This document shows, piece after piece, positions 22,943-46,690 of a DNA stretch of 53,515 nt. The notes beneath the pieces were generated by a model that had not been told where the DNA came from, made no database searches, and saw nothing but the letters and a program-made list of their open reading frames with translations. Each line of letters starts with the position of its first letter. The stretch's first letter is position 1. The position numbers and the translations under genes are program-made. Origin of the DNA: a virus (lineage: Duplodnaviria; Heunggongvirae; Uroviricota; Caudoviricetes); the IMG/VR virus record IMGVR_UViG_3300036828_000767, positions 1 to 53,515 of that record. One strand, written 5' to 3'.

Positions 22943-23647
22943 TTAGTCCCTCCTGGGTATGGCGCGGAGCCAGCCATGCTGATGCCACATGTCACTACCT
23001 TCAGGGTAATGCGGGTGGCGTACAGTTTCCACATCGTGGCCGCTGGCGGTGAGCAGGGTTTCGCATTCTTCTTTCAGCCCTGGGGCGTGGAACTCTATCA
23101 GCCACTTCGTCCCGCATGCGGCCATGAGCATCTGACCGCCGCGGAGAACCGCCGCTTCGTGGCCTTCGGTGTCGATGACCACCAGGTCCGGGTCGCCGAT
23201 GTCATCGGCGAGAGTGTCGAGGGTGGTGCACGGCACCGCGTGCAGTTTCGCCTCACCCCAGTCCGGCAGCGACCACTCCATCCCGTCGGTGCCGGGGGTG
23301 ACCCATTCCCCCTTGCTGATAGCCATGGGTACTTCAGCGAGCTGCACCGTGCCGACATGGTCGGAGACAGCGACATTCATCAGCAGCGCCCACGGGATAT
23401 GCGCTTCACGTCTTTGGTCTTCCAGGTCAGGTTCAGCCCACGCATGGAACCGCTGCCGGAGGTCACCGTAGGAACCAGGTTCGGGTTCGCAGGCGATGAT
23501 GCCCCGGTACCCGAGGGCAGCGAACTGGGCGAAGTTTTCACCTTTCCTCGCGCCGATGTCGAACGCGAGGTCACCAATAAGGTCACGCCATAGGACCGGT
23601 TCGACGGAAGGCGGGTCAGATGGCACCAGAGGAGGCAGTTCAGGCAC
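22943..23647 (-). CDS. FkbM-family SAM-dependent methyltransferase
   Basis: AFDIGARKGE (motif I), IACEPEP, NVAVSD, VPCTTLDTL, LVVIDTEGHEAAVLRGG, LIEFH; GGAGGA before GTG at 23647. Confidence 0.9.
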   Translation of the reverse strand: MPELPPLVPSDPPSVEPVLWRDLIGDLAFDIGARKGENFAQFAALGYRGIIACEPEPGSYGDLRQRFHAWAEPDLEDQRREAHIPWALLMNVAVSDHVGTVQLAEVPMAISKGEWVTPGTDGMEWSLPDWGEAKLHAVPCTTLDTLADDIGDPDLVVIDTEGHEAAVLRGGQMLMAACGTKWLIEFHAPGLKEECETLLTASGHDVETVRHPHYPEGSDMWHQHGWLRAIPRRD

Positions 23648-24452
23648 TGATTCCTCCACGGACGGTGTCGAGCTGGTATTTGCCTGGTTCGCGGTGCGGG
23701 CGGAACGATTGCGCCTGGGAGAACGCAAACGACGTTTCGCTTGACGCCCAGCCTTCGAGGCGGCCGATGTTCTGCGACCTGGAAGCATCCGGCACCACGC
23801 ACAGCTTGTCATGGTTCGGCAGGATACGGGTCGCTATGTTCCAGTCCCAGCCAGAATCGAACCCCTTGGTGCCGGAAGTGCAATCCCAGTCCCAGTCCTT
23901 GGCGAACATGGGCCACCGGTCCCACCACGTACCCCAGCACCAGGCATTGAAGTACGGCGTAAGCCGCACCTGCCACTGGTCCGCGTCACCGTCATCAGCA
24001 GGCTCGTGTTTGTCCCACCCCTGCCCGCCAGGCGAATGAGCGCATACCGCAGCGACCTGCTCGTTGCTGGCGAACTCCGTTGCGGCCCAGGCGAAGTACT
24101 CCAGGATGTCGTCGGACACCACCACGTCTTCTTCGCCGAAAATCACAAACGCCGGTTCGGGGGACCAGTTCACCATGTCAGCGAACAAGGCGTCGCCCAT
24201 GTCGCCGATAGCCCTGTGCATGCCCATGTTCGGCACGGGGTCAGGGTGAACAATCACACCAGGGCGGTGCATCAGTTCGCTCTGCTGGAGGACGGCTGTC
24301 ATTTCCCGTTCCCGGTCGCTACGGCCCATCGCGACGTAGAACTCTTGCACTTCGCCGATACCCCGGGCTTGTTCCCACGATTTGACAGTTTCCCGCCAGT
24401 AGTAGGGACGCTTACAAGCGGTCGTGGCGACAGCCATGTCGGCTGGGGTCAC
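23640..24452 (-). CDS. GT-A glycosyltransferase, GT13 (GnT-I)-like
   Basis: TACKRPYY, VIFGEEDVVVSDDILEYF, AVCAHS, FNAWCWGTWWDRW, GWDWNI, VVPDASRSQNIG; start uncertain (24437-24530). Confidence 0.7.
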   Translation of the reverse strand: MTPADMAVATTACKRPYYWRETVKSWEQARGIGEVQEFYVAMGRSDREREMTAVLQQSELMHRPGVIVHPDPVPNMGMHRAIGDMGDALFADMVNWSPEPAFVIFGEEDVVVSDDILEYFAWAATEFASNEQVAAVCAHSPGGQGWDKHEPADDGDADQWQVRLTPYFNAWCWGTWWDRWPMFAKDWDWDCTSGTKGFDSGWDWNIATRILPNHDKLCVVPDASRSQNIGRLEGWASSETSFAFSQAQSFRPHREPGKYQLDTVRGGISA

Positions 24453-24513
24453 CAGGATGCACCCTTCGGCACGTAGGCCCGCACCGTGCCGCAGCGGACC
24501 GGCAGGGGGTATC

Positions 24514-24693
24514 TCACGCGCCTTCCTCATGCGCCGAATGGAACAGCCCGGTGCCGCACGCCACGCAAGCCGCCATGTTCATCGGGTCCGGCGTGAACGG
24601 GTGCTTCACCTCCTGCGCGTCCGCGGTGGTGCCGTCGATGCCGTACGCCTGACGCACCGGCTCACCGCGGTTCTCGAACTGCTGGTCAGTCAC
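24514..24693 (-). CDS. Small Zn-finger-like protein (59 aa)
   Basis: MTDQQFENRGEP...KHPF...CVACGTGLFHSAHEEGA; GTGA overlap with upstream gene; not in ORF track. Confidence 0.6.
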   Translation of the reverse strand: MTDQQFENRGEPVRQAYGIDGTTADAQEVKHPFTPDPMNMAACVACGTGLFHSAHEEGA

Positions 24694-24902
24694 GACTGCC
24701 TCGCAATTGCGGCATTACCCCAGAACATGACTTCCTCCAGATGAGTGATGGCCAGGGACTTCTCCCGGCCTTCGGGAAGCATCGCGTTCAGGTTGTAGGC
24801 GAGCACCTTGCAGCCCTGCCTCACATCGTGATGCTCGTTGACCCGGAACTGGTCCGGCGGGGGATGATGGCCGAACCTGGCATCAAGATCGTCAGGGCTC
24901 AC
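24690..24902 (-). CDS. Tad1/Acb2-like hairpin protein (candidate nucleotide-signal sponge)
   Basis: RFGHHPP...PEGREKSLAITHLEEVMFWGNAAIAR resembles the Tad1 C-terminal helix (SRENACALTHVEEALMW, recalled). Confidence 0.7.
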   Translation of the reverse strand: MSPDDLDARFGHHPPPDQFRVNEHHDVRQGCKVLAYNLNAMLPEGREKSLAITHLEEVMFWGNAAIARQS

Positions 24903-25066
24903 TTGTGACCCTTCTTCTTCTCGTCCTTGGTGCCGTCAAGCTGGAACGGCACCGCGTACCCGCCAGCGGAATCGACATCCAGTGACATGACACGCATCTG
25001 CCCGTCACCGGTACCAGCGTCCTGCACCTCGACGATCTGCGGCTGCTCAGTCTTCTTGTCGGGCAT
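24899..25066 (-). CDS. 55-aa protein carrying a copy of the major-capsid N-arm motif
   Basis: MPDKKTEQPQIVEVQDAGTGDGQMRVMSLDVDSAGGYAVPFQLDGTKDEKKKGHK; AGGAGG RBS; stop overlaps next GTG; not in ORF track. Confidence 0.75.
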   Translation of the reverse strand: MPDKKTEQPQIVEVQDAGTGDGQMRVMSLDVDSAGGYAVPFQLDGTKDEKKKGHK

Positions 25067-25075
25067 TGCTTCCTC

Positions 25076-25216
25076 CTATCGCGCGGGCCACCCGGCCTCG
25101 AACCCGGGGATACCCAACCGGAACAACCACGGCAGCGACCGGACACGCGGGTCATCCGCTGCCACCATCCCGAACGAGTTGCCGTTGCTGTACGCGCTGT
25201 TGCCATTAAGCAACAT
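25076..25216 (-). CDS. Small hypothetical protein (46 aa)
   Basis: AAGGAAGG RBS; MLLNGNSAYSNGNSFGMVAADDPRVRSLPWLF, weakly like VAAGHPILR...LF of 22667-22942. Confidence 0.5.
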   Translation of the reverse strand: MLLNGNSAYSNGNSFGMVAADDPRVRSLPWLFRLGIPGFEAGWPAR

Positions 25217-25288
25217 GACTACCTTCCTTGAACGTAGTGACCTGCCGTTATGTCGAGCGGCTAACATTTCGGCCATGGACAAGCCTTT

Positions 25289-26053
25289 TCATACACTACC
25301 AGGCCGTGGTCTGAACCAGTTTGGCGGACAACGCCGCTCCCGGACGTAGCGCGGCCACGTCCCGTCCACATCCACGGCCACCATCTGTACATCATGATGC
25401 TCACCGTGGTAGTACCCGTGCCCCCCCGCGAGGATGCGCCGTTCCAGGTCCGGCAACTCCCGGTGACATGACACTGTCAGCTTCTCGTTCTGCGCCTGCG
25501 GACCACCCAACCAGGACAAATGCCACCCACCGTCCGCAAGCAGCCGGTACGCAGGCCGCCCATCACGAACCGCAGACAGCTTCTGCCCCTTGATGTACTT
25601 CGCCAGGCCGATCACCGAACCAGGCATCGGCGCCGGGTACAGCCAGTCCACCGCACTATGACAGGTCCGCATCAGCAGCCCCGCCGGCGGCCCGCCGTAC
25701 GTCATCAGGTGCTGCGCCGGGATTTCGTCCGCGTCGGCGATCAGCACCAGGTCGTCGTCGGCGGCGAGCTTGTCAATGGTGGCGCACATGGCGTCCCGCT
25801 GGGCATGTTCACGCACCCACGGGTCCTCTGCGTCGGGCAGCTCCGGCACCACCACGTGGAATATCTTGTCCCACCACCGGTTGAACCGGCCTTCGTTCGC
25901 CGCGTAGAAAAGCGGCTTGTCCCGGCCGTGGAAATCCTGCAACGACTCGACAAGGACATGGTTCACTTCCACGCCGTATGCCTCGAACTCCTCGAACCGG
26001 CACTGGGCCATATCCAGCTCGTTGCGGAACATGAACGTGTCCCAGATCATCAT
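25289..26053 (-). CDS. GT17-family (GnT-III-like) glycosyltransferase
   Basis: DTFMFRNELDM..RF, HVLVES, KPLFY, EHAQRD, DDLVLIADADEIP, GGWHLSWLGG. Confidence 0.85.
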   Translation of the reverse strand: MMIWDTFMFRNELDMAQCRFEEFEAYGVEVNHVLVESLQDFHGRDKPLFYAANEGRFNRWWDKIFHVVVPELPDAEDPWVREHAQRDAMCATIDKLAADDDLVLIADADEIPAQHLMTYGGPPAGLLMRTCHSAVDWLYPAPMPGSVIGLAKYIKGQKLSAVRDGRPAYRLLADGGWHLSWLGGPQAQNEKLTVSCHRELPDLERRILAGGHGYYHGEHHDVQMVAVDVDGTWPRYVRERRCPPNWFRPRPGSV

Positions 26054-26766
26054 GAGATGTGCAGCCCCTCTTTAAACGCCGCCCATGTTTGCGCCGTGTA
26101 AGGCTCACCGCCGAGTTTCTCAATATCAGCGTTCAGCCCGTCCGCGCAATACGTGTCAAACGCGATCCTGTCTTTCCATGCCAGCCCCACGGACCTGGCG
26201 TACGTGTCGTCGTACTCGGCACCACCGCCGCCGGTGAAGTGCAGGTGCGGTATCTCCACGTCATGCAGGTATGTGATGCCGCATGCCTTCCCCCAGGCCA
26301 TCCACACCGGGTCCAGCCACATGTGCCTGATCGACGGCACAGCCAGGTAACCGAGCGTGGTGACAGTGTCCGCGCTGGTGAACAAGTGGCAGCACAGCGA
26401 CCCGGGCTCGCGCGGGTACTTGTCGTTGCCGAACGCGAACCGGGTCTCCTCCAGGGCATCTATCAGGTGAACATCCCACCCGTTTGTCACCGGCACGTTA
26501 TCGTCGCCGATATGGCCAAGGAACTTGTACCCCTCCGCGGCGGCGTCCTCAGCGAGCCGGTTGATCCACGGGCCTACGTTGGTGAGCGAATCACTGACTG
26601 TGTATTCAACCCCGTCCAGCCGGGGATAGCTGGCCTCATCATCAGCGTCCAGGCCAACGATGAGCCTGGTGAAGCCCTGGCACGTGCCCTGCATCGCGTC
26701 ATGCAGGCGCTGAATGTTCCGCGGGCGCCCACGTGACGGGACGATCACCGCCAGGTCTTTACGCAT
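26050..26766 (-). CDS. GT2-like glycosyltransferase
   Basis: LAVIVPSRGRP, VGLDADD, GHIGDDNVPVTNGWD, HMWLD, EIPHLH. Confidence 0.8.
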   Translation of the reverse strand: MRKDLAVIVPSRGRPRNIQRLHDAMQGTCQGFTRLIVGLDADDEASYPRLDGVEYTVSDSLTNVGPWINRLAEDAAAEGYKFLGHIGDDNVPVTNGWDVHLIDALEETRFAFGNDKYPREPGSLCCHLFTSADTVTTLGYLAVPSIRHMWLDPVWMAWGKACGITYLHDVEIPHLHFTGGGGAEYDDTYARSVGLAWKDRIAFDTYCADGLNADIEKLGGEPYTAQTWAAFKEGLHIS

Positions 26767-27691
26767 CCCTGATCACCTGATCCCAGTCTTCCACTTCGGG
26801 GAACGTGCCCCGCATCACAACATGAGCGCCGTTGGCGAAGCTTTTCACCTGCATCGAGTCGCTGGACGGATGCACCTGGCTCATACCCATCAAGCCTGCT
26901 ATTTCCAGGGCCTGCCTGTACTCCCGGTCTTTATTACCGCCGATCACGACGAACTCCACCTCGCCTGGTTCATCAGCAAGAAGCACCAGGCGGGACAGGT
27001 CCGCGGCCAGGGTCGGCTCAGCTCCGGTGACCACCGACACCAGCCGCGGGTTCGCAGGGACACCTTCCAGCAGCGCAGCGAGCTTCGCCAGGTCTTTCGC
27101 CCGTTCCCGTTCCATCTCCACCGCGTGGAAAGTAGCCACATTGGCAAGCTGATCCCGTGCCAGGGCTGTGGCGTCGCGGACCTTCCGGTGGCTTACCGTC
27201 ACCGGGATGTGCCTGGTCCGGCGGAGCTGCTCACCCAGGGCAATGATCCACATGTCGATGGAGTGGTCAAGGCTGAGCCGCCCCAGGCATTCGAACCAGG
27301 CCGCCGGGATCACCGGGAAACAATTCATCCCAAGCGCCTCGGGCACATAAGACCACAGCACCGAGAACGGCAGCCCGCGGATGTAAGCGTCCCAGCCGTG
27401 TGTCCGCATGACCGCGTCGTCGTTCCAGATGAAAAGCCAGTCACCCGTTGCGAACTCGGCCAGGTCGTTGTAATACCGGTGCAGTCCGCCGTACCCGTAA
27501 CGCTCAGGCGACACGTGGACGCGGATGCTCGGCGTGCCCGGGGGGTAGGGAATGTGGTCGTCGGGGTCAACGGCGATGCAGATTTCCACGTCGTCGGGCC
27601 GGGTGGCGTTGTTAAGCAGGGATTCGACACTGTGCCGCATCATCGTGTCCCTGCTGCGGGTGGGCAGCAGAACCGAAATCTTCTCGGTCAC
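26759..27691 (-). CDS. GT2-like glycosyltransferase
   Basis: ISVLLPTRSR, IAVDPDD, GDWLFIWNDDAVMRTHGWD, SIDMWI. Confidence 0.8.
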   Translation of the reverse strand: MTEKISVLLPTRSRDTMMRHSVESLLNNATRPDDVEICIAVDPDDHIPYPPGTPSIRVHVSPERYGYGGLHRYYNDLAEFATGDWLFIWNDDAVMRTHGWDAYIRGLPFSVLWSYVPEALGMNCFPVIPAAWFECLGRLSLDHSIDMWIIALGEQLRRTRHIPVTVSHRKVRDATALARDQLANVATFHAVEMERERAKDLAKLAALLEGVPANPRLVSVVTGAEPTLAADLSRLVLLADEPGEVEFVVIGGNKDREYRQALEIAGLMGMSQVHPSSDSMQVKSFANGAHVVMRGTFPEVEDWDQVIRDA

Positions 27692-28083
27692 GGCGCCAGA
27701 AGCGGCACATCAAGCCGCTCGGTGTCTGTTTCGTAGTCCTCCCCGGTGCGCGGCCCCCTGGTGAACACCAGCACCGTGGTGTCTTCCAGAGCCCGCCAGG
27801 CATGCGCGATACCAGCGGGCTCGCAGAGCATCGTGCCGGCGCCGAATTCCACGGGGACGCCGTCAACGGCGACGTGCTTACCAGCGACGAGCATCCGGCC
27901 GGACAGGATGTACGTCCACTGGGTTGTGCGTTTGTGAATGTGGTTGCCGCGTACCGCGCCCGCACGGGTGAAGATGTGCGTCACGCCGTCGATGATGGTG
28001 CTGCCGAACATGTTCAGCAGCGGCTGCAACGGCAAGTCCTGGATGATGCCACGGCGGTCTTCGAACCGGTCAGCCACGTGCAA
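27688..28083 (-). CDS. Cupin (RmlC/FdtA-like sugar isomerase/epimerase)
   Basis: FEDRRGIIQD, AVRGNHIHKRTTQWTYILSG, GIAHAWRALED. Confidence 0.8.
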   Translation of the reverse strand: MHVADRFEDRRGIIQDLPLQPLLNMFGSTIIDGVTHIFTRAGAVRGNHIHKRTTQWTYILSGRMLVAGKHVAVDGVPVEFGAGTMLCEPAGIAHAWRALEDTTVLVFTRGPRTGEDYETDTERLDVPLLAP

Positions 28084-29200
28084 CCTCCGCGATCTTCGGT
28101 TCGGGCAGCGGGATGATGAACTTCCCCTGGTAGCCCTTGCCGGTCAGGGACTTCATGATGTCGCCGGCGATATGCCAGGAAAAGATTAGCGCGTACGGAG
28201 GCTGGTCTGCGATGAGCTTCGCCTCATCCACAACGGGAATCTGAGTTCCCGGCATCGTCTTGCCGATTTTCTCGCTGCCGGGAACCTCGCACACGCAGGA
28301 CACATAACCAGAAATCCCGGCGAAGTGGATCAGCGGCGTCGCCCTTGTGGTCGCCCCGATGCCGTAGATGCCGCCGGAAAGCCCGCCGAGCAGCCTTCGC
28401 AGTTCCAGGCCGGCCTGGTTCGCCCGGTTGGTCAGTCCGCCGAACTGTGGTGCCTTCGCGGCGAACACCCGCATCGACCCGCCGTGGGTGTCGATATGCT
28501 CCACGGCCTTTACTTGAAGCCCGCCGTTTTCCAGCAGCCGGGTGAGCGTCCCAGGCGTGTAGTACCGCAAGTGCTCGTGGTAAACCGTGTCGATCTGCAA
28601 GCCGTGCTCCACGGCGCTGAAGTCGTGGCACTCGGTGACGAACACGCCCGTGGGGGACAGCAAATCAGCGACGCCGCAGACAAAATCCACCGGTTCCGGG
28701 ACATGCGCCAGAACATTCGTCGCGGTCACCACCTCCGCCTGGCCGTAATCCTGAACGATCCGCCACGCCAGGTACGAGGTGAAAAAGTCCTGGTAGACGT
28801 TCATGCCTTTGGACTGGCATTTCAGTGCCTGCCTGGTGGGCTCCACCGCCACCTTGGTGCACGCCTGCGGGAACGCTTCCAGCAGCGTCCCGTCGTTCGC
28901 GCCGATATCCACCACCAGGTCGTTTTCCCGCAGCAGCCACGACACCTTGTTCGCCAAGCCCTCAAAATGCCACCGCAGCGCCTTAGTGTTCCCCGAAGCG
29001 TACGGGTGATCCGGCGGGAACAGTTTCTCCTGCGGCACCGCGTAAGACAGTTGCACCAGGAAACAGTTCGTGCACCGCCGCAGCTTCAACGGGAACACTT
29101 CACTGCTGCCGTAAGCCTCAGCGACAGGCTGATCACCCATGTCAAGCAGGACCACGAAGTTATGCCCGCCGCACAGCGCGCAGGACCGAATCTCAGCCAT
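28070..29200 (-). CDS. NDP-hexose C-methyltransferase (Zn-binding N-terminus, SAM domain)
   Basis: CALCG...LDMGDQPVA...LRRCTNCFLVQL; VVDIGANDGTLL; TNVLAHV; DTVYHEHLRYY; THGGSMR; KIGKTMPGTQIPV; KFIIPLP. Confidence 0.9.
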   Translation of the reverse strand: MAEIRSCALCGGHNFVVLLDMGDQPVAEAYGSSEVFPLKLRRCTNCFLVQLSYAVPQEKLFPPDHPYASGNTKALRWHFEGLANKVSWLLRENDLVVDIGANDGTLLEAFPQACTKVAVEPTRQALKCQSKGMNVYQDFFTSYLAWRIVQDYGQAEVVTATNVLAHVPEPVDFVCGVADLLSPTGVFVTECHDFSAVEHGLQIDTVYHEHLRYYTPGTLTRLLENGGLQVKAVEHIDTHGGSMRVFAAKAPQFGGLTNRANQAGLELRRLLGGLSGGIYGIGATTRATPLIHFAGISGYVSCVCEVPGSEKIGKTMPGTQIPVVDEAKLIADQPPYALIFSWHIAGDIMKSLTGKGYQGKFIIPLPEPKIAEVARG

Positions 29201-30155
29201 TGTTCTGGTACCACGTAACAGTCGCCGACAGGCCGTCCTTGAACGGCGTCCTGACAAGGTTCCCGATGCCGGCGAGCTGGTCCATCTTCGTGGTGTCGGG
29301 CAACCGCTTCGGCGGGGAGCCCTTAGGCAGCGTCCCGGGGATCACCTTGACCTGCTTCCCGTAGCAGGCCGCTACCTCGTGGGCGACCTGCTCGATGCTC
29401 CGCTCCACCATGGTGCCGACGTGGTACACGCCGGTCTGCCCCTTCTCCAGCAGCAACGCCAACTGCTCCACACAATCGCTGATGTAGCAGAAAGACCTGG
29501 TTTCCAGGCCGGTGCCCTGGATGGGGAACGGCAGAATCGCCGCGCTGGGCTGCTCCTTAACAAGCTGGTTCATCCGCAGGCAGAACTCCGGGATGACATG
29601 CTCACGGCCCATGTCGGGACCGTAAATGTTATGCGGGCGGGCGATCACGGCCCGGTCCAGCACCCCGGTGCGCTGCCACGCCAGCGTCACCAGCTCGGAG
29701 GCGATCTTTCCGCCGCCGTAGGAGTACCGGGGGTTCAGCACATCCGGGACTGTCAGCGGCACATCCTCACCGGTAGGTACTTCCGGTGCCACCTGGTACG
29801 CCTCGCTGCTGGACACCAAGAGGAAATCACCGCAGCCCCACTGTTCGCACGCCGACATCAGGTTCAGGACGCCCCGCAGCGCCACGTCCAGTACCTGCCT
29901 GGGCTCCGCGTAGAACGTCTGCGTGCCTTGCAGGTACGCCAGGTGAATAACAGCGTCCTGACCCTGCACAGCCCGGTGGACCTTCATCTCGTCGCGGATG
30001 TCGCCAGGGATCAGGTTCACCGGGGTGTTCCGCAGCCGTTCAGCCTTCCCCCTGGACAGGTCATCCAGCACGGTGACCTCATGGCCGAGGCCGTACAGGT
30101 GCTTGCAAAGACTGCTGCCGATGAACCCGGCGCCGCCGGTGACTAGAACCCTCAT
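29193..30155 (-). CDS. NAD-dependent nucleotide-sugar epimerase/dehydratase (extended SDR)
   Basis: VLVTGGAGFIGS, VSSSEAY, RYSYGGGK (YxxxK), RPHNIYGP, RSFCYISD. Confidence 0.92.
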   Translation of the reverse strand: MRVLVTGGAGFIGSSLCKHLYGLGHEVTVLDDLSRGKAERLRNTPVNLIPGDIRDEMKVHRAVQGQDAVIHLAYLQGTQTFYAEPRQVLDVALRGVLNLMSACEQWGCGDFLLVSSSEAYQVAPEVPTGEDVPLTVPDVLNPRYSYGGGKIASELVTLAWQRTGVLDRAVIARPHNIYGPDMGREHVIPEFCLRMNQLVKEQPSAAILPFPIQGTGLETRSFCYISDCVEQLALLLEKGQTGVYHVGTMVERSIEQVAHEVAACYGKQVKVIPGTLPKGSPPKRLPDTTKMDQLAGIGNLVRTPFKDGLSATVTWYQNNG

Positions 30156-30781
30156 TACGCCTCCACGTAGCGGAAGTGCGGACTGTCTATTTCCACCCGG
30201 CCGGGCTTGGGCATGTTCGGCAGCATCCCTGCCTGGACGCTGTCACTGCTCGAATGCCGGTAGTAGTACAGAACCCTATCCAGGTAAACCTCCGCCTTCA
30301 CGTGCGGCCTGACACCGCCCCGCCAGGTGAAATCCTCCGGCCAACCCTGCGAAAAGTCACCTATTCGCGCCAGATCGGCACGTACCGGCTGCACGTGGGT
30401 CAGGTCCCGGTACAACACGCCAGCGGCCCAATCGTCACGCGGGGTGTTGACGATACTGTTCAGCACCCTCACCGGCAGGCCGCCGTCCCGGGTGTAGATC
30501 GTCTCGAATCCCACCACGTCAGGACCAGCTTCGAGGGCAGCCAAAATGACCGGCACATAGTCGTCGGCTACAGCGTCGTCGTCATCTATGAAACTGACGT
30601 ACTCGCCGCGGGCCGCATCCAGCAGCACCTGCCGGTACACGCCCACCGGCTTCTCGCCGTTGTTGTGCAGTGCGACTATCTCCACGTCATCGCCGGTTAT
30701 CTGCGACAGAACCATCCCAACCAACCCAAGGAACCGGGACTGCCGGTAACCAATCGTCGGGATCAGGATGCTCCACTTCAC
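30155..30781 (-). CDS. GT2 glycosyltransferase
   Basis: WSILIPT, LDAARGEYVSFIDDDD; GTGA overlap with upstream gene. Confidence 0.88.
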   Translation of the reverse strand: MKWSILIPTIGYRQSRFLGLVGMVLSQITGDDVEIVALHNNGEKPVGVYRQVLLDAARGEYVSFIDDDDAVADDYVPVILAALEAGPDVVGFETIYTRDGGLPVRVLNSIVNTPRDDWAAGVLYRDLTHVQPVRADLARIGDFSQGWPEDFTWRGGVRPHVKAEVYLDRVLYYYRHSSSDSVQAGMLPNMPKPGRVEIDSPHFRYVEA

Positions 30782-31467
30782 CGCAGTGCCTTCACTGTCG
30801 CGACATCCGCCGCCATCCGGTGAGCCTGCCATTCCAGGTAGGCCCGGTAGTCCCGGTGGTCGGTGTGGAAGCCTCCGGCGTCGCCGTAGGTGGCATCCAT
30901 GGAGGCTTTGCCGGTGGTGTGGTGGAGGTGCTCAACTATCACGTCAGGGTTATACACCAGGCACCCGGCGGCGTGGCCCAGGTCTGACCACACGTTGTCC
31001 ACGCAGTAATGACCCAGGGCGGGCAGGCACATCCAGCCCAGCGCACGAACTATCTCCACACTGATCACCGGCGCTGTCGCCAGGCGTTTACCCATCGCCA
31101 GGTCATCCCCGTAAGCGATACCAGGCCCGCCGGTTTTCGACACCGACATCATCAGCTTCTGGTCCCACCCCACCGTGCGAGGCAGGTGATCGTCGCCGAA
31201 CGACGCAAAATGGGTGAACCCTTTATCCAGCGCGGCCAAGGCCAAGACGTTCGTCCACCCGGCCAGAGACTTCCGTGGCCCCACCGTGTACGTCACGTCC
31301 GCCCCACCAGCGGCATCCATGTACACCGGCAGGTACACGTCGTCATCGTCGAGGCCAACCGCCACCGTGGTGTCCTTCGCCCTGGTGACACGCAAAGCGT
31401 CGATCATCCTTGCCAGCCCCGCCGGCCTGCCTCTGGACGGGACAATCACCAGCAGCCGGTACAGCAT
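30778..31467 (-). CDS. GT2-like glycosyltransferase (paralog of 26050-26766)
   Basis: LLVIVPSRGRP, VGLDDDD, SFGDDHLPRTVGWD, HYCVDNVW, VEHLH. Confidence 0.8.
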   Translation of the reverse strand: MLYRLLVIVPSRGRPAGLARMIDALRVTRAKDTTVAVGLDDDDVYLPVYMDAAGGADVTYTVGPRKSLAGWTNVLALAALDKGFTHFASFGDDHLPRTVGWDQKLMMSVSKTGGPGIAYGDDLAMGKRLATAPVISVEIVRALGWMCLPALGHYCVDNVWSDLGHAAGCLVYNPDVIVEHLHHTTGKASMDATYGDAGGFHTDHRDYRAYLEWQAHRMAADVATVKALR

Positions 31468-31471
31468 CTGG

Positions 31472-31639
31472 TCAGTCTTCTTCGCCGGAGGTGACACGCT
31501 CTGCCTCCGGGCACGGGGAAACGTGGTGAATGGACCGGATTTGACTACGCCAGAGTTTGACAATGGGCGCTCCGCAGCCGGTACAGACAAGCAAACCATC
31601 GGCGTTCCTGACCACCCTGACACCATCGGCAGGTGTCAC
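31472..31639 (-). CDS. Small Zn-finger-like protein (55 aa)
   Basis: MTPADGVRVVRNADGLLVCTGCGAPIVKLWRSQIRSIHHVSPCPE...; fills the gap between two GT genes. Confidence 0.5.
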   Translation of the reverse strand: MTPADGVRVVRNADGLLVCTGCGAPIVKLWRSQIRSIHHVSPCPEAERVTSGEED

Positions 31640-31647
31640 CGGCCCGC

Positions 31648-32847
31648 TCACAGCTTCGCCTCTATGGCGGCAAGAGCCGGAATCCAGTACTTCTCCAGCA
31701 CCGTATCCACGTCATACTCCTGAGCGTGCGCCCGGGAAGCGGCACACTTCGCCCGATACGGCCCGTCTCGTTTGTACGCCTTCTCGAACGCTTTGACAAG
31801 CTCAGCAATGAGCGGCTTGTCCCACCAGGAGTCATGACCAGGCCGCCAGTACGGTTCCGACTTCACCTCGTACGCGACCGGGCCGACCACCTCGTGCATG
31901 GCGCTGCCCCACCCGCCGGCGCCGTGCTTCCCCGGCCCGTACTGGTCCTCCCCAGTGCCCCTGGTGGACACCACCGGAACACCGCATGACAGGGCCTGCA
32001 ACGCGGGCAAGCCAAACCCTTCGGCGAGAGACGCACCAGCGTAAAGGTCAGCGATGCCGTAGTTGGACCGGAGCGTTTCCGCACGGATCATCCCGGCGGT
32101 CAGCAGGTACTGGTCGGTCCAGGCGATCCCGTCGAGGCAGCCCATCCGCGCTGCGGTGTACGGCAAGTCCAGCCCGCTGTTTGTCGTTTGCAACGTGTGG
32201 CACATCAGCAGGGCGTCAGGGTGCTTGACACGGAACCGGGAGAACGCCGCGAACAGTTCCGCGTAGCCTTTCCGGTCATGGGACAGGTTCGCCGCGTCGG
32301 TGAAGATGATGAACCGGTCGTCGAGACCGAGGGCTTCCCTGGCGGCTTTCTTATCCGCCGGCGGCACCCACAGCGTCTTGGTGTCGATGCCGTGCGGCAC
32401 ATAGGTGGAGCTGTGACCAACTTCGGCGAGCTGCTTCTGCGCGAAATGTGTTAGTGCCAGCAGGTGCGTCTTCACGCCGGCGTTTTTGGCGTTTTCCAGT
32501 TCGTTGCTGTCACGGGTGGACAGCGGCGAACAGTCCACCGGAATCCAGAACGCCACGTGACGGCCGCGGAGTGTTTCCTTCGGCAAGGCCCACTGATCCA
32601 TGAGCGCTATCACAAGGTCGGCTTTGAAATGTTCGGCGTGCTTCCCGATGATGTCGCCGCCGTAGTTATGCTGCCCGCCAGGGTAGACGGGGATGCCTTC
32701 CCATCTGGTCATCCCTCCTAGATGACCGTAAAACGACGAGATCGCCACCTCGTGACCGAGTTCAACCAGTTTCCTAGTCCATACGCCTGTCTGTACCCCG
32801 TATCCGGTGCCTGCCCAGGCGGCATTACTATGCCACAAGATACGCAT
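31648..32847 (-). CDS. GT4 (GT-B) glycosyltransferase
   Basis: MRILWHS, TGYGVQT, VPHGIDT, DRKGY, AEGFGLPALQALSCGVPVV. Confidence 0.92.
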   Translation of the reverse strand: MRILWHSNAAWAGTGYGVQTGVWTRKLVELGHEVAISSFYGHLGGMTRWEGIPVYPGGQHNYGGDIIGKHAEHFKADLVIALMDQWALPKETLRGRHVAFWIPVDCSPLSTRDSNELENAKNAGVKTHLLALTHFAQKQLAEVGHSSTYVPHGIDTKTLWVPPADKKAAREALGLDDRFIIFTDAANLSHDRKGYAELFAAFSRFRVKHPDALLMCHTLQTTNSGLDLPYTAARMGCLDGIAWTDQYLLTAGMIRAETLRSNYGIADLYAGASLAEGFGLPALQALSCGVPVVSTRGTGEDQYGPGKHGAGGWGSAMHEVVGPVAYEVKSEPYWRPGHDSWWDKPLIAELVKAFEKAYKRDGPYRAKCAASRAHAQEYDVDTVLEKYWIPALAAIEAKL

Positions 32848-34463: not shown

Positions 34464-37400
34464 CTACAGGGTGCTGAGCAGGCGGAATGCGTTGGGCACG
34501 AGCACCCGGCTGTTGTTAAACCAAATCGCGAGAATCCCTCGTTGGCCGACCGGGAACCGGTTGGTCGAGCCGAACAGGTGCGGGATCAGCTCGATGCCCA
34601 TGCCGATCCGGTCCACGATCAGGAACTGGCTGAAGTCGCCCTGGAGCAGGACGAGGGAGCCAGACGAAATCGCCGTGGTCATCGTGGACAGTTCGTACGC
34701 CGGGTAGCCGTTGAACGTCGCCGGAGTACCAGCGGAAGGCCGCACCCACGAGTCGAACGCGGCCGAGGCGAGAGCCTGGAAGAGCTGACGGAACCGGTTG
34801 AAGGTCGTCTTCGACGCCAGGTAGGCGCTCTGCTGACGGAACCGGGGAGCCATCTGGTTTTCCAGGTTGTACAGGTCACCAATCGCCAGGGTCGCCGTAC
34901 CCGCCGTGTTCACCAGCGAAGCGGGGCTGGAGTCATGCAGCGTCTGGATGACACCGTTGGCGTTCGGGGCGGTGCCGTTGCCGAGGGCGAACGAAGTTGC
35001 TTCCTCAACGTCCTTGGCATCCATCAGCAGGTTCGTCATCTGGGACCGCAGCGCGCCCCAGGAGACGTCCAGCTCGATGTTGAACGGCACGAAACCCTGC
35101 ACCCGCGTGGTGCGGACGTTCGGCTGCACCAGCAGCGGGTCACCGGTCGCGGCTTCAGTTCCTTCAGCGACACGGTTGACAACCACACCAGCGGACGTCA
35201 CGCCGTCCCATTCCTTGCCGGTGATCTGCTCCACCCGGGAAATCTGGCGAAGCGGGTTGATGGCCCCATTTGAGGACAAAATCACCGTTGGGTCGAGCTG
35301 GAACGGTACGGCGAAACCGCCTGCGGAGTCCACACCGAGCTGAAGGGCTCGCTGCTCCTCAGTGTTCAGGCCATTCACGCTCAGCGACCCAAGCATCTTG
35401 CCGAACGCCCGGTCGTAAAGCGGCGAACCGGTGACCAGGACACGCCGGGCCAGGGAGCCGCCCTCGTCATCCACCCGGTCAAGCAGGTTCGCGACCGTCT
35501 CCTGGCAGTCCTCGCGGGACTTCGGACCGGAATACCGGACCGCGTCCAGGGCACGCATCGCGTGCTCCCGGTACAGGGTGGGCACCTCGTCGAAGTTGTG
35601 CGCCTTGTGCCGGATCGCCGTCAGGTCGAAAATCTGCTCCGGCTTCATCGGGTTGTAGAACATCGGCCCGGTGCCGAGACGGTCCTTGACATAGGCGGGC
35701 GCGTTCCTGACCGTGGTGCCGTAACCACCCTGGCCCCCGCCGGGAGTGAACCCAACACCGGGGAAACCGATGCCAGCGTTGTCGATGCCCTCCATGGCAC
35801 CCTCGTCGCCGCTCTCAACGATGGTCCGCAGGTACTGGGCGCGAGCCGTGGCGTCCTTAATGGCCCGCTGATGCTCGATCAGTTCCTGCTGAAGGGAAGT
35901 CCACTCGGTTCGGGTGTCGGCCGGAAGTTCGGCACCCATGTTTTCGGTGTCGATCTCTTGCAGCCGGTGCTGGACTTCCATGAGCCGCGCCTGCCGCTGG
36001 TCGATGGACATAAGTCCTTCCATCGTCTCGCTCTCCTTGATAGTGCTCGGGGGTGCCGGGTGCGGCTGCGGCCCTGGCTTAACGGCGGCCCCAGTGCTTG
36101 CGTCTGCGTTACGCGGGACGGCGGCGGCTGGCTTCCTGCCGGAACTGCTAGAACTCTTTGTATCACCCTTTGCCGCCTGAATGGCGCGTTCATGCGCCTC
36201 CAGGTGCGCCCTTGCTGCCGTCGCGTTCATCAAACCCTGAGCGCCGGCAAGGCGGCCGAGTGCATTACTGACACCATGCGCGTTCGGCGGGTCGCCTGGC
36301 TTGTAGTGGTGCGGGAGACCCCACGTGGCTTGCAACTTCGGGTCGCCCTTACGGCGGCCCGCGCAAACCGCGGCGTAAAACTTGGCCGGGTCATTCGACG
36401 CCGAACCCGCAGCCCACACCTTCCCCGCATCCCACGCGGAAGTGTCCACACTGCCATGGCTGTCATCGGCAGGTTCGGCGGCATCAGGTGCGGCACGCCC
36501 TTCCTTGTCCTTCATCGGCTTCCCCGGTACCGGCTTCTTCTGCTTCCCATCGGCCGTCCAATAATCATGGTCGGTGTCGGTGGAAGCCTTCGAGTCGTCG
36601 TCGCCGTCCTTATCGGGGTCAAACTTGCCAGCCTTCGACGCGGCGACACCAGTCGGCGTGCCCATATCGTCGGCGTCCGGCTCAGTTTCCTTCTTCTTCT
36701 TGCCCTTACCAGCGCGGCCTGAAGTACCGGGGTCGTGGTCGTGGTCGTGCAGCGCGTCGCCCTCGTGGTCGTGTTCATGGCCGTGCATTCCGTCGCCGTT
36801 GTCGTCGGGGCCGTCATAAGCGTTGTGGTTGTGGGAATGCGAACCGGTATGGGTGCCATGCGTGGCCACCGTAGTGTCACGCGCCGGTACTGGGCTTGCC
36901 ATGTCATCGGCGGCCGGTGCCGCCGTGGCCCGCTCAGCTTCCACGTCGTCGTCCCTGGCTGAATTGGAAGTCATTCCTGCGGCTCCTGTCACCACCGCCG
37001 GGTACGCCTTATTGTCCGCCTGCGCGGACGCACCAGCGTCTTCGATATGCGCCCGCAGGTGCGCCTTCGCCTTCTGCTTGCTGTCGGTGGGGAACCCTTC
37101 GATGGAATCAGCCTTCAGAAGCGCGTTCCGGGAGGCGATAAGGTTCGCCGCGCCGGGGGTGCCATCGTCGTTGACGTGGTGGTGCGGCAGGTAACCATGC
37201 TCGGGCATGTAGTTGCCGCCGTTTCCCGCACCAGCGGCCTGATCGGCAAGGGCGTACACCGACTGCATGTGGTCCCAGGACGTGGGGAACTTCAACTTGC
37301 CGATTTCGGCCTTGGGGTCGTAGTCGGTCGTGGCCACGTCGGTGTGGTGAACCGGCACACCGGTCCGGCTCTGCCCGTTCAAATTGACGATCTCCATTGC

Positions 37401-44875: not shown

Positions 44876-45082
44876 GTGGACATCTACGTTGCCGTAGCGG
44901 ACTATCCCTGCCAGGACCGGTACACACCCAGTGCCATCTTCGGAGCATTCAGCACCGAAGAAAGGGCTCGGGCGGCAGTGGAAGAAGACGCCGGACCGCT
45001 GGAATGGAAAGAAGATAGGGCCACCGACGCTGCCGGCGTTAACTTTACGGTGATGCTGGTCAGCCTGGATGAGGCTATTTGA
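44876..45082 (+). CDS. Hypothetical protein
   Basis: IYVAVAD...IFGAFSTEERARAAV, a common small phage protein pattern. Confidence 0.6.
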   Translation: MDIYVAVADYPCQDRYTPSAIFGAFSTEERARAAVEEDAGPLEWKEDRATDAAGVNFTVMLVSLDEAI

Positions 45083-46172
45083 CCGGCAGGTACTCGAACG
45101 ACCTGGTACCGAGTGAACGAGGGTCTAGGGCGCGGGCGGTCATACCGCCACGTTTTGGGCCAACACGTTTCCCGGTGCCGAGCTGACGCGATCTGACCGT
45201 GGAACGCCACCTTGGTGACGCGACAAAGTAATGCACCAGGCCGGGATGTGCGGTGACGAACCGGTACCGGTAGCCCCGGTCGGCGAGGTACTGGCCCTGC
45301 CACTCGCACAGGTGCTTGGCGATGCCCAGCCCCTGCCAGTCGGGCAGCACCACCACCCGGTGCGCCATCTGGATGTCCCGCACCTTCGGGTGGGGGAAAT
45401 GCCGGTAAGAGGAGAACGCGACAGGCCGGCCGTCGCAGTACACGCCGAAACATTTAGCCGTGGTATGGAGGGAGGCGCTCAGATAGTGATACCTAGCAAA
45501 CAGGGGCCAGATGGCGCGACTGCATTGGTGAATCTGGAGACTGATCGGCGGATGGGGTCTTTTAGACCTCCAGGCGAACTCGCCAAGCGGCATCTCAACC
45601 ACCCAATCGGGCTGAAGCCATTCGAGGACATCTTCGTGACAAGTTACCGCGATGAGCCTACGGTCTGTTTTACGGATCGCCTTTTGCAAGGCATGGGAAG
45701 CCACCCGCGCCACGTGCCTATCAACGACAGAACTGTATTCATCTATTACCGCAACGCCACCGGCAGGCGTTTCTGCGATGGCCCTTGCAACATCGGCCCG
45801 GAAGGCTTCACCGGTACTGAGCGTGGAGTAGGGCCGGACCCAGGCAGGCACGCTGCCCAGCCCCACGGCGGTCAGGAGCTTGACGGTCTCGCCTACGCCC
45901 ACCGGGAACCCGTCTATCAGCGCCTTATCCTCCGGCCAGTTGTACCGCTGAGTACATTGTGGCCATGCTTCTTCTGCAAGGAGACTCTTACCTGCCCCAG
46001 ATGGACCGGTGACAAGGCCGATATTCCACGGTTTTTCGTCGAGAGGCATCCTTACGTCAAGGTCAACTCGCAGTTTTTGGTCGAGTGGAATGTCCATGAG
46101 GCCCGCGACCTGCAACGCCCGAGGCGTCCGGGTTATTGTGTAGTCCTTACTAATTCTTATATGTGTTTCCAT
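45075..46172 (-). CDS. ABC-type ATPase fused to GNAT acetyltransferase
   Basis: GPSGAGKS, LSTGEAFR, AVIDEY, AVTCH; then YHYL...HRVVVLPDWQGLGIA (GNAT motif A). Confidence 0.88.
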   Translation of the reverse strand: METHIRISKDYTITRTPRALQVAGLMDIPLDQKLRVDLDVRMPLDEKPWNIGLVTGPSGAGKSLLAEEAWPQCTQRYNWPEDKALIDGFPVGVGETVKLLTAVGLGSVPAWVRPYSTLSTGEAFRADVARAIAETPAGGVAVIDEYSSVVDRHVARVASHALQKAIRKTDRRLIAVTCHEDVLEWLQPDWVVEMPLGEFAWRSKRPHPPISLQIHQCSRAIWPLFARYHYLSASLHTTAKCFGVYCDGRPVAFSSYRHFPHPKVRDIQMAHRVVVLPDWQGLGIAKHLCEWQGQYLADRGYRYRFVTAHPGLVHYFVASPRWRSTVRSRQLGTGKRVGPKRGGMTARALDPRSLGTRSFEYLPVK

Positions 46173-46690
46173 AGCCTTCCTTTGATGATGCTGCATACGG
46201 CACTACGGCTTATCCCAAATTCGGCAGCAAGGTTCTTCTGCTGTTCGCCTTCCTGGTGGCGCAGTCTGATTTGCCGTACGTCCTCAGCGGTCAGTTTGGC
46301 GTTGCCATGATTCTCACCCCTAGGCGAACGCTCTCCGTTACCGTCACGGATATCGCGATCCCAAGCATTTTCGGCCGCAGTGCCCCACCGCAGGTTTGGC
46401 AAAGAATTGTCGAATGGCCCAGCAGGGCCGTGCAGGGCCATAGCCCCGGGAGGTGGCGGGCCAGCGAAGGCTTCAAGAACCAGTCGTGCGACCGAGTAAA
46501 ACCTTTCTTCCTGAACGCCATCTTCGAACCGGCAGAGCCTCACCCGGATGTACCGCTCCTTGACACCACCTAGAAGCCGTCCGCCGCGCATGCCGTAATG
46601 GTGACGCCGGGGAAGACTTCGGACCCTGCCCAGATCGGAGACCTCGTAAAGATGCACCCAGCCTGGCACTGGCCGCCAACATTCCGTCAT
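46157..46690 (-). CDS. NUMOD4-HNH homing endonuclease
   Basis: WRPVPGWVHLYEVSDLGRVRS; VARLVLEAFAGP...ALHGPAGPFDNSLPNLRWGTAAEN; C-terminal HTH. Confidence 0.9.
   Translation of the reverse strand: MTECWRPVPGWVHLYEVSDLGRVRSLPRRHHYGMRGGRLLGGVKERYIRVRLCRFEDGVQEERFYSVARLVLEAFAGPPPPGAMALHGPAGPFDNSLPNLRWGTAAENAWDRDIRDGNGERSPRGENHGNAKLTAEDVRQIRLRHQEGEQQKNLAAEFGISRSAVCSIIKGRLWKHI

Follow-up and report, generated by a model that had tools for sequence, protein, structure and literature searches.

Small copies of assembly motifs are already known, from satellites and from the targeting of encapsulin cargo. The satellite SaPI1 encodes CpmB, a 72-aa protein whose C-terminal motif copies the capsid-binding motif of the phage 80alpha scaffold (PMC5644958), and encapsulin cargo carries C-terminal targeting peptides that dock on the inner face of the HK97-fold shell, at a site made of the N-terminal element and the P-domain (PMC11664910). 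Internal head proteins of T4 have a capsid targeting sequence and are processed by the prohead protease (PMC3012670, PMC9958956). In P74-26 the capsid N-arm strand pairs with the E-loop of a neighbour and accessory proteins add strands to capsid sheets; the N-arm of the portal-vertex protein contributes one such strand, to the sheet of the capsid P-domain, and has a Lys that enters the DNA groove at the vertex missing a penton (PMC12407722).

We analysed a window of 53.5 kb, the first part of a 117.5-kb IMG/VR virus record with an estimated completeness of 93%, in which a 55-aa open reading frame, P0001, repeats a segment of the phage's own capsid protein. To our knowledge, no phage microprotein family that copies the maturation site and N-arm of its own capsid, and adds a polybasic tail, has been described. 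The record has its own portal, capsid and tail genes, and is thus a phage, not a satellite. P0001 lies inside a long late operon, between glycosyltransferase and methyltransferase genes of the capsid-to-tail interval (Table 1); searches of the window for a promoter-like site near P0001 and for a terminator-like site flanking it found neither. GGAGG-like sites stand at the same place before the ATG in the window-clade loci L003, L009, L049, L052 and L057.

Table 1. Coordinates in the window of the microprotein gene, its parts, its overlapping neighbour and the capsid segment that it resembles.
Feature	Position	Strand	Basis or remark
Microprotein gene P0001, 55 aa	24899..25066	-	Open reading frame and translation; purifying selection; homologs P0003-P0008
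Shine-Dalgarno site AGGAGGAA	25070..25077	-	3 nt upstream of the P0001 ATG; from sequence
P0001 N-part, residues 1-24	24995..25066	-	Net charge -3; alignments A1 and A3, charge counts
Arg25 codon	24992..24994	-	Opposite Arg896 of the capsid fusion in the alignment
Copy of capsid N-arm tip, P0001 residues 26-45, VMSLDVDSAGGYAVPFQLDG	24932..24991	-	BLASTP; invariant family columns L, D, GG, VP, QL
14-residue core, P0001 residues 31-44	24935..24976	-	Within the N-arm tip copy
Basic C-terminal tail, TKDEKKKGHK	24902..24931	-	Net charge +3
Acb2/Tad1 hairpin-domain gene, 70 aa	24690..24902	-	GTG start overlaps the P0001 stop by 4 nt
Protease-scaffold-major capsid protein fusion P0002, 1190 aa	34464..38036	-	Source of the copied motif; Pfam
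Capsid maturation-site and N-arm segment, P0002 residues 894-917, EQRALQLGVDSAGGFAVPFQLDPT	35286..35357	-	Near-invariant in 16 related capsids

The capsid protein of this phage is the C-terminal part of the fusion P0002, in which Pfam identifies Peptidase_S78 (residues 37-206) and Phage_capsid (residues 906-1187, E 2e-20), the two domains being joined by a long linker that is acidic and rich in His. The closest solved chain to residues 860-1190 is PDB 9LW6 (E 6e-56); the entries 9LW6-9LW8 hold a 543-aa "phage capsid-like C-terminal domain-containing protein." P0001 residues 23-46 match P0002 residues 894-917 at 16 of 24 positions (BLASTP E 1e-8), and the core of P0001 matches P0002 residues 902-915 (35292-35333) at 13 of 14, the sole change being Y/F, between genes lying some 10 kb apart. 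In a six-frame scan of the whole window, only the capsid matched the core at 8 or more of its 14 residues. The two stretches are identical at 48 of 72 nucleotides and use differing codons at 10 of the 16 identical residues. Both the core match and the codon divergence reported by a first-pass annotation, made from the sequence alone, were thus reproduced.

P0001 shares with PF05065 capsids the N-arm tip motif DSAGG-aromatic-x-VP that follows the maturation cut, and is homologous to these major capsid proteins over 24 residues that include the region of the cut. It nevertheless lacks the entire HK97 fold (A domain, P domain and E-loop), and where the capsid continues with Pro-Thr-Val-Ile-Leu, P0001 has Gly and the basic tail. 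Searched against Pfam at E values up to 1, P0001 had no match, the HK97-fold profile PF05065 being undetected in its 55 residues. AlphaFold2 with the family alignment gave no fold (mean pLDDT 60, pTM 0.13, zero secondary structure), in agreement with the earlier description of the flanks as charged and probably disordered.

The copied segment can be placed by two anchors. The HK97 capsid protein is cut at K103/S104, where its N-arm begins (PMC10275583), and N-terminal sequencing of the mature capsid protein of mycobacteriophage LittleE gave DLDRNNGTGGYAVP (PMC3706429). The latter puts the cut 8 residues before GGY in LittleE. In HK97 the cut would lie 9 residues before the position matching GGY; a profile alignment did not bridge the distance to the HK97 cut site. 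The conserved block of P0001 starts at Arg, 10 residues before GGY, and so takes in both the predicted cut and the ~20 residues with which the mature capsid protein begins. Both anchors fit the first-pass proposal that the segment is the N-arm region following delta-domain cleavage, and on their positions Arg25 is predicted to be P1 or P2 of the maturation cut. The pattern R[AV][LM] occurs 5 times in P0002 against 1.1 expected (P 0.005), at residues 11, 828, 865, 896 and 1177. Those at 11, 865 and 896 are conserved in homologs and are candidate prohead-protease cut sites, lending weak support to Arg-Ala/Val-Leu as a putative recurring protease site.

Six close homologs of P0001 (P0003-P0008; 49-56 aa, 71-87% identity) come from soil metagenomes. 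Pairwise Nei-Gojobori comparison of relatives over a 37-codon core gave dN/dS of 0.07-0.22 at dS of up to 1.7; the frame of P0001 is therefore under strong purifying selection. Together with the conserved Shine-Dalgarno site, this selection identifies P0001 as a real, functional gene. A profile of the close homologs run against 1.84 billion representative proteins had 22 significant matches, all of 51-117 aa, and a second profile search with a 28-member alignment (A3) had 56 proteins at E <=1e-3, of which at least 4 are capsid-gene fragments. In all, at least 50 short relatives were found. All are metagenomic, and none has a functional name, the names given at source, where there are any, being "hypothetical protein."

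Members of A3 have in common a C-terminal module, Arg followed by [AV][LM]xLGxDSAGG[YF]AVP[FYK]QLDG and a polybasic tail, and the sole part common to all members of the family is [LM]xLGxDSAGG[YF]AVP[FYK]QLDG with the tail. The Arg at the predicted cut is kept in 27 of the 28 A3 members. Tails are net positive in 27 of the 28, with a mean charge of +5.3 over ~11 residues, and N-parts are net negative in 23. These N-parts cannot be aligned across the family; in P0001 conservation of the N-part is limited to the close clade (A1, A3). Where the capsid invariably reads QLDP, most of the microproteins read QLDG, which suggests from the alignment a single origin of the family rather than repeated captures. 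Many members have VPK where the capsid has an invariant aromatic (VPF/Y). One subfamily, A4 (P0041-P0056; 61-116 aa), has its own conserved, Pro/Gly-rich N-part (GRPxEHxPRV...GPLTxPGPGEQ...GAxDAVxGAPLSPP), does not conserve the Arg and mostly reads VPKQLD, with the same C-terminal module. A4 was absent from IMG/VR and from GTDB representative genomes, and a metagenome scan returned two short contigs only.

The diverged family retains the motif, and this, with the low dN/dS, bears out the proposal of selection on the peptide in place of a recent DNA duplication. The earlier statement that no described equivalent was recognised also held: the family matched nothing in Pfam, PHROGs or PADLOC, and in 50,697 cultured-phage records there was no microprotein, the sole matches being capsid N-arm regions of Gordonia, Rhodococcus and a few other phages. 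Nothing in the PDB matched a 31-aa peptide, and the ESM Atlas had no usable match. We conclude that the P0001 family consists of undescribed, metagenome-only, intrinsically disordered phage microproteins.

Among the outcomes that the first-pass annotation had named as counting against it were an absence of conservation in relatives and a motif that does not track the cognate capsid. Conservation in relatives was found, and tracking was not. In the four kinds of microprotein-versus-capsid pair compared, the residues read Y/F in the window and L003, GT/GV in L009, SL/FA in L057, and Y/Y with PY/PF in L058; capsids 73% identical to that of the window carry SLGTDSAGGYAVPFQLD, which is identical to the core of P0004. 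The small changes in the microprotein are thus independent of its capsid, and its motif departs little from the consensus for the capsid lineage as a whole. Because the capsid motif is almost invariant, tracking is a test of little power.

The gene is rare, and its position varies among related phages. Capsids 50-83% identical to that of the window carry the same motif, and no separate microprotein was found beside them in flanking DNA of up to 10 kb on each side. Nor was one found in five larger related records, two of which are 82-84% complete, and a search of more distant relatives for a fused or nearby copy of the motif matched capsid genes only. Cultured Rhodococcus phages with the same capsid motif lack the microprotein. 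Since relatives with the same motif do without the gene, it is dispensable for this capsid type.

Where the gene does occur, its surroundings differ. Context A, that of the window clade and of the more distant L127, is the capsid glycosylation island, where the gene comes after a small ORF that itself follows a GT17-like gene. Context B, found in L054, L055/L058 and L126, is upstream of the terminase block; here the gene directly precedes that for a 363-aa P-loop NTPase with a GNAT domain, which it overlaps by 4 nt in L126. On the P0018 contig and in L129/L130 it comes after a phage GNAT-like (PF22559) protein (context C); the A4 gene of L129 occupies 1143-1490, directly after the PF22559 gene, and that of L130 is placed likewise. 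On the P0015 contig the microprotein is among small genes with no known function (context D). The window has its own counterpart of the context B NTPase/GNAT gene at 45075-46196 (minus strand, 57% identity). The slot in which lineage B has the microprotein is occupied in the window by a 177-aa ORF (46157-46690, minus strand), which we take by eye to be a homing endonuclease of the NUMOD4/HNH type with an HTH, and which may explain the rearrangement. The capsid-to-tail interval of the window, 22943-32847, is a glycosylation/methylation island of ~10 kb in which GT17, FkbM methyltransferase and GT-like genes were confirmed; the islands of relatives are variable, some having epimerase, cupin or LanB-C-like genes. 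LanB-C-like and FxSxx genes on two contigs led us to consider a RiPP precursor, an idea we set aside on finding the "core" conserved and the "leader" variable, the reverse of RiPPs.

The first-pass annotation had put forward three functions, an immune decoy, a protease substrate or regulator, and a minor protein docked in the shell, and all three stay candidates here. The microprotein is probably aimed at the phage's own capsid machinery. Its C-terminal, basic-ended module, placed after a disordered region, resembles the addresses of CpmB, encapsulin cargo and T4 internal proteins, and we therefore favour, tentatively and at somewhat less than even confidence, a capsid-directed peptide that acts by N-arm mimicry and is possibly trimmed by the prohead protease. 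CpmB is likewise a C-terminal mimic with a basic end (RIIK), and competes for the scaffold's site on an HK97-fold capsid near the N-arm (PMC5644958). It differs in copying the helix-and-hook of a scaffold, where P0001 copies the capsid N-arm and not a scaffold C-terminus, and in being a satellite-encoded, phage-parasitising protein with a folded dimerisation domain, where P0001 is phage-encoded with no predicted fold. In encapsulin cargo, too, a disordered region is followed by a short, conserved peptide at the C-terminus, a likeness that for P0001 is architectural only; encapsulin peptides are of ~10 residues, are attached to enzymes and are not copies of the shell protein's sequence.

T4 internal proteins are also small and basic, have the capsid's protease site in common with it, lose an N-terminal piece and stay with the DNA. 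Their targeting sequence is conserved and N-terminal and their shared site is 3 residues long, in contrast to the variable N-part and ~20 mature-capsid residues of the P0001 family, and their protease is of the gp21 type as opposed to S78 here. Accordingly, a conserved N-terminal targeting sequence of the T4 type is missing from the P0001 family, whose N-parts do not align, while the region of the capsid-shared cleavage site is copied, its Arg kept in A3 as described above and lost in A4, with HK97 and LittleE as the sole anchors for the cut. The portal-vertex and decoration arms of P74-26 are similar in laying an extended strand on the capsid beta-sheets that hold N-arms (PMC12407722). They form part of folded proteins, and their sequences do not resemble that of the capsid N-arm; the P0001 family is known from sequence only.

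In our working model, the C-terminal module would be a capsid-directed address, a copy of the N-arm read by the partners of the capsid's own N-arm tip: an acceptor surface on neighbouring capsid subunits and, where the Arg is kept, the S78 prohead protease. The procapsid would then incorporate the microprotein or carry it on its surface, and a cut following Arg25 or beside it may leave a peptide of ~30 residues whose basic tail could contact packaged DNA or the acidic scaffold linker. Its binding, cleavage and location in the virion are what we infer from these comparisons. The ~20 conserved residues on the P' side exceed what a protease site usually needs, which makes a second partner reading the N-arm tip likely, the obvious candidate being the capsid lattice. 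P0002 linker residues 341-520 have a net charge of -17 and could attract the basic tail. The same linker (36477-37016, minus strand) contains 13 His, in runs such as HGHEHDHEGD and HDHDHD, a composition that suggests metal binding or charge-based scaffolding.

Several points count against a capsid role. The gene is rare, and its loci shift, some being accessory-like and not structural, as is typical of host-interaction genes. VPK variants, and the A4 proteins without the Arg, may differ from the capsid in binding mode and cleavage. In a normal lattice, moreover, capsid subunits already occupy all of the N-arm acceptor sites. Structure prediction was uninformative on the acceptor site, which was unreadable in an AlphaFold2 model of the capsid domain (alignment A2; mean pLDDT 55, N-arm region <50), and a complex of two capsid cores lacking the N-arm tip with P0001 residues 20-55 scored 0.00 in a prediction run without controls, a score that tells neither in favour of binding nor against it.

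A different kind of function would be immune evasion. Prohead proteases activate CBASS by cutting the activation loop of the CD-NTase (PMC12991175), and an abundant free peptide might compete with such host "tripwire" sensors for the protease, or mask a capsid-sensing receptor, which we consider a serious though unlikely explanation. In the window clade the peptide and the product of the overlapping downstream gene would make up an anti-CBASS pair of two layers. That product matches Pfam PF24729 (E 2e-19, above cut-off) and PDB 9PTQ, "Acb2 homolog 43" (E 1.4e-3), and is likely, from these matches, a cyclic-nucleotide sponge encoded inside a virion glycosylation island. The two genes adjoin in every window-clade locus while the upstream neighbour varies, the gene's patchy occurrence and its changes of locus are typical for counter-defence, and the Arg at the predicted P1 is nearly universal in A3. 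The pairing does not extend further, however. The syntenic L127 lacks the Acb2-like gene: directly after its microprotein comes a homolog of window 23640-24530 (52% identity). There are also Acb2-like genes with no microprotein, and among the other lineages for which genes were called, none has such a neighbour; the association is therefore lineage-specific and not a property of the family. An immune decoy leaves the universal polybasic tail and the ~20 conserved P'-side residues unexplained, PADLOC has no match, and a sensor presented with a mimic of its trigger should be activated rather than silenced. The tail and the architecture common to the family, both missed by the first-pass annotation, favour capsid or DNA targeting over a pure immune decoy. 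We regard as decidedly unlikely the specific form in which a free copy of the cleavage site and N-arm stops the protease or the N-arm from tripping sensors, such as protease-activated CBASS cyclases, and in this clade acts together with the translationally coupled Acb2-like sponge. If true, it would be the first phage-encoded "self-mimic" against protease- or capsid-sensing immunity, and would link capsid maturation to immune evasion.

The copied cleavage-site region, Arg included, could instead make the microprotein a regulator of maturation or assembly, either serving the fused S78 protease as pseudo-substrate or cofactor or capping capsid subunits before they assemble, and so delaying proteolysis or polymerisation until the shell is built while the basic tail tethers it to DNA or to the acidic linker of P0002. 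Premature cutting is a real risk for a protease fused in cis to its own substrate, and in the window the gene is embedded in the late operon and has neither a promoter nor a terminator to itself. A possible parallel for such tethering is the adenovirus peptide pVIc with its protease. Most phages with the same fusion architecture nevertheless lack the gene, and A4 does not conserve the Arg; we hold this role to be improbable. We think it more doubtful again that the microprotein is a substrate or pseudo-substrate of the phage's group-transfer enzymes, its N-arm-like motif or Lys tail serving as acceptor for glycosyl-, methyl- or acyl-transferases encoded nearby, which may modify the capsid too. 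In four of the five context types such an enzyme is either adjacent or separated from the microprotein gene by a single small ORF. In the window clade and L127 it is GT17, upstream of that ORF; in L054, L055 and L126 it is the P-loop NTPase with GNAT domain, directly downstream; on the P0018 contig and in L129 and L130 it is the PF22559 GNAT-like protein, directly upstream. But a glycosylation island of 10 kb is expected to supply neighbours of this kind by chance, the GNAT proteins of the various contexts are of different families and might act on DNA or small molecules, and the window's own P-loop/GNAT gene is 20 kb distant. That the sole known similarity of P0001 is to a 24-residue stretch of its own capsid gene might also mark it as a non-functional remnant of a partial capsid-gene duplication, its frame open by chance. 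Given strong purifying selection (dN/dS 0.07-0.22), a conserved ribosome-binding site and a diverged family that retains motif and tail, this is so improbable that we excluded a dead remnant.

Should the capsid-directed peptide indeed dock in the shell, it would reveal a novel means of loading or anchoring peptides in HK97-fold capsids, candidate sites being those that lack an N-arm, for instance at the portal vertex, and would provide a natural 20-residue address tag for capsid engineering. The family is in any case a reminder that annotation misses microproteins.

Two minor observations concern the genes downstream of P0001. A physical complex of the microprotein with its Acb2-like neighbour was considered and dropped, as each gene occurs without the other; P0001 itself had no match to the Acb2/Tad1 hairpin-domain profile (PF24729). 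Beyond the Acb2-like gene, and overlapping it by 4 nt, is a 59-aa ORF (24514-24693, minus strand) that has no family match; an ORF of the same size is kept in window-clade loci, and a C-x2-C...H-x2-H pattern in the window's copy makes a zinc knuckle possible.
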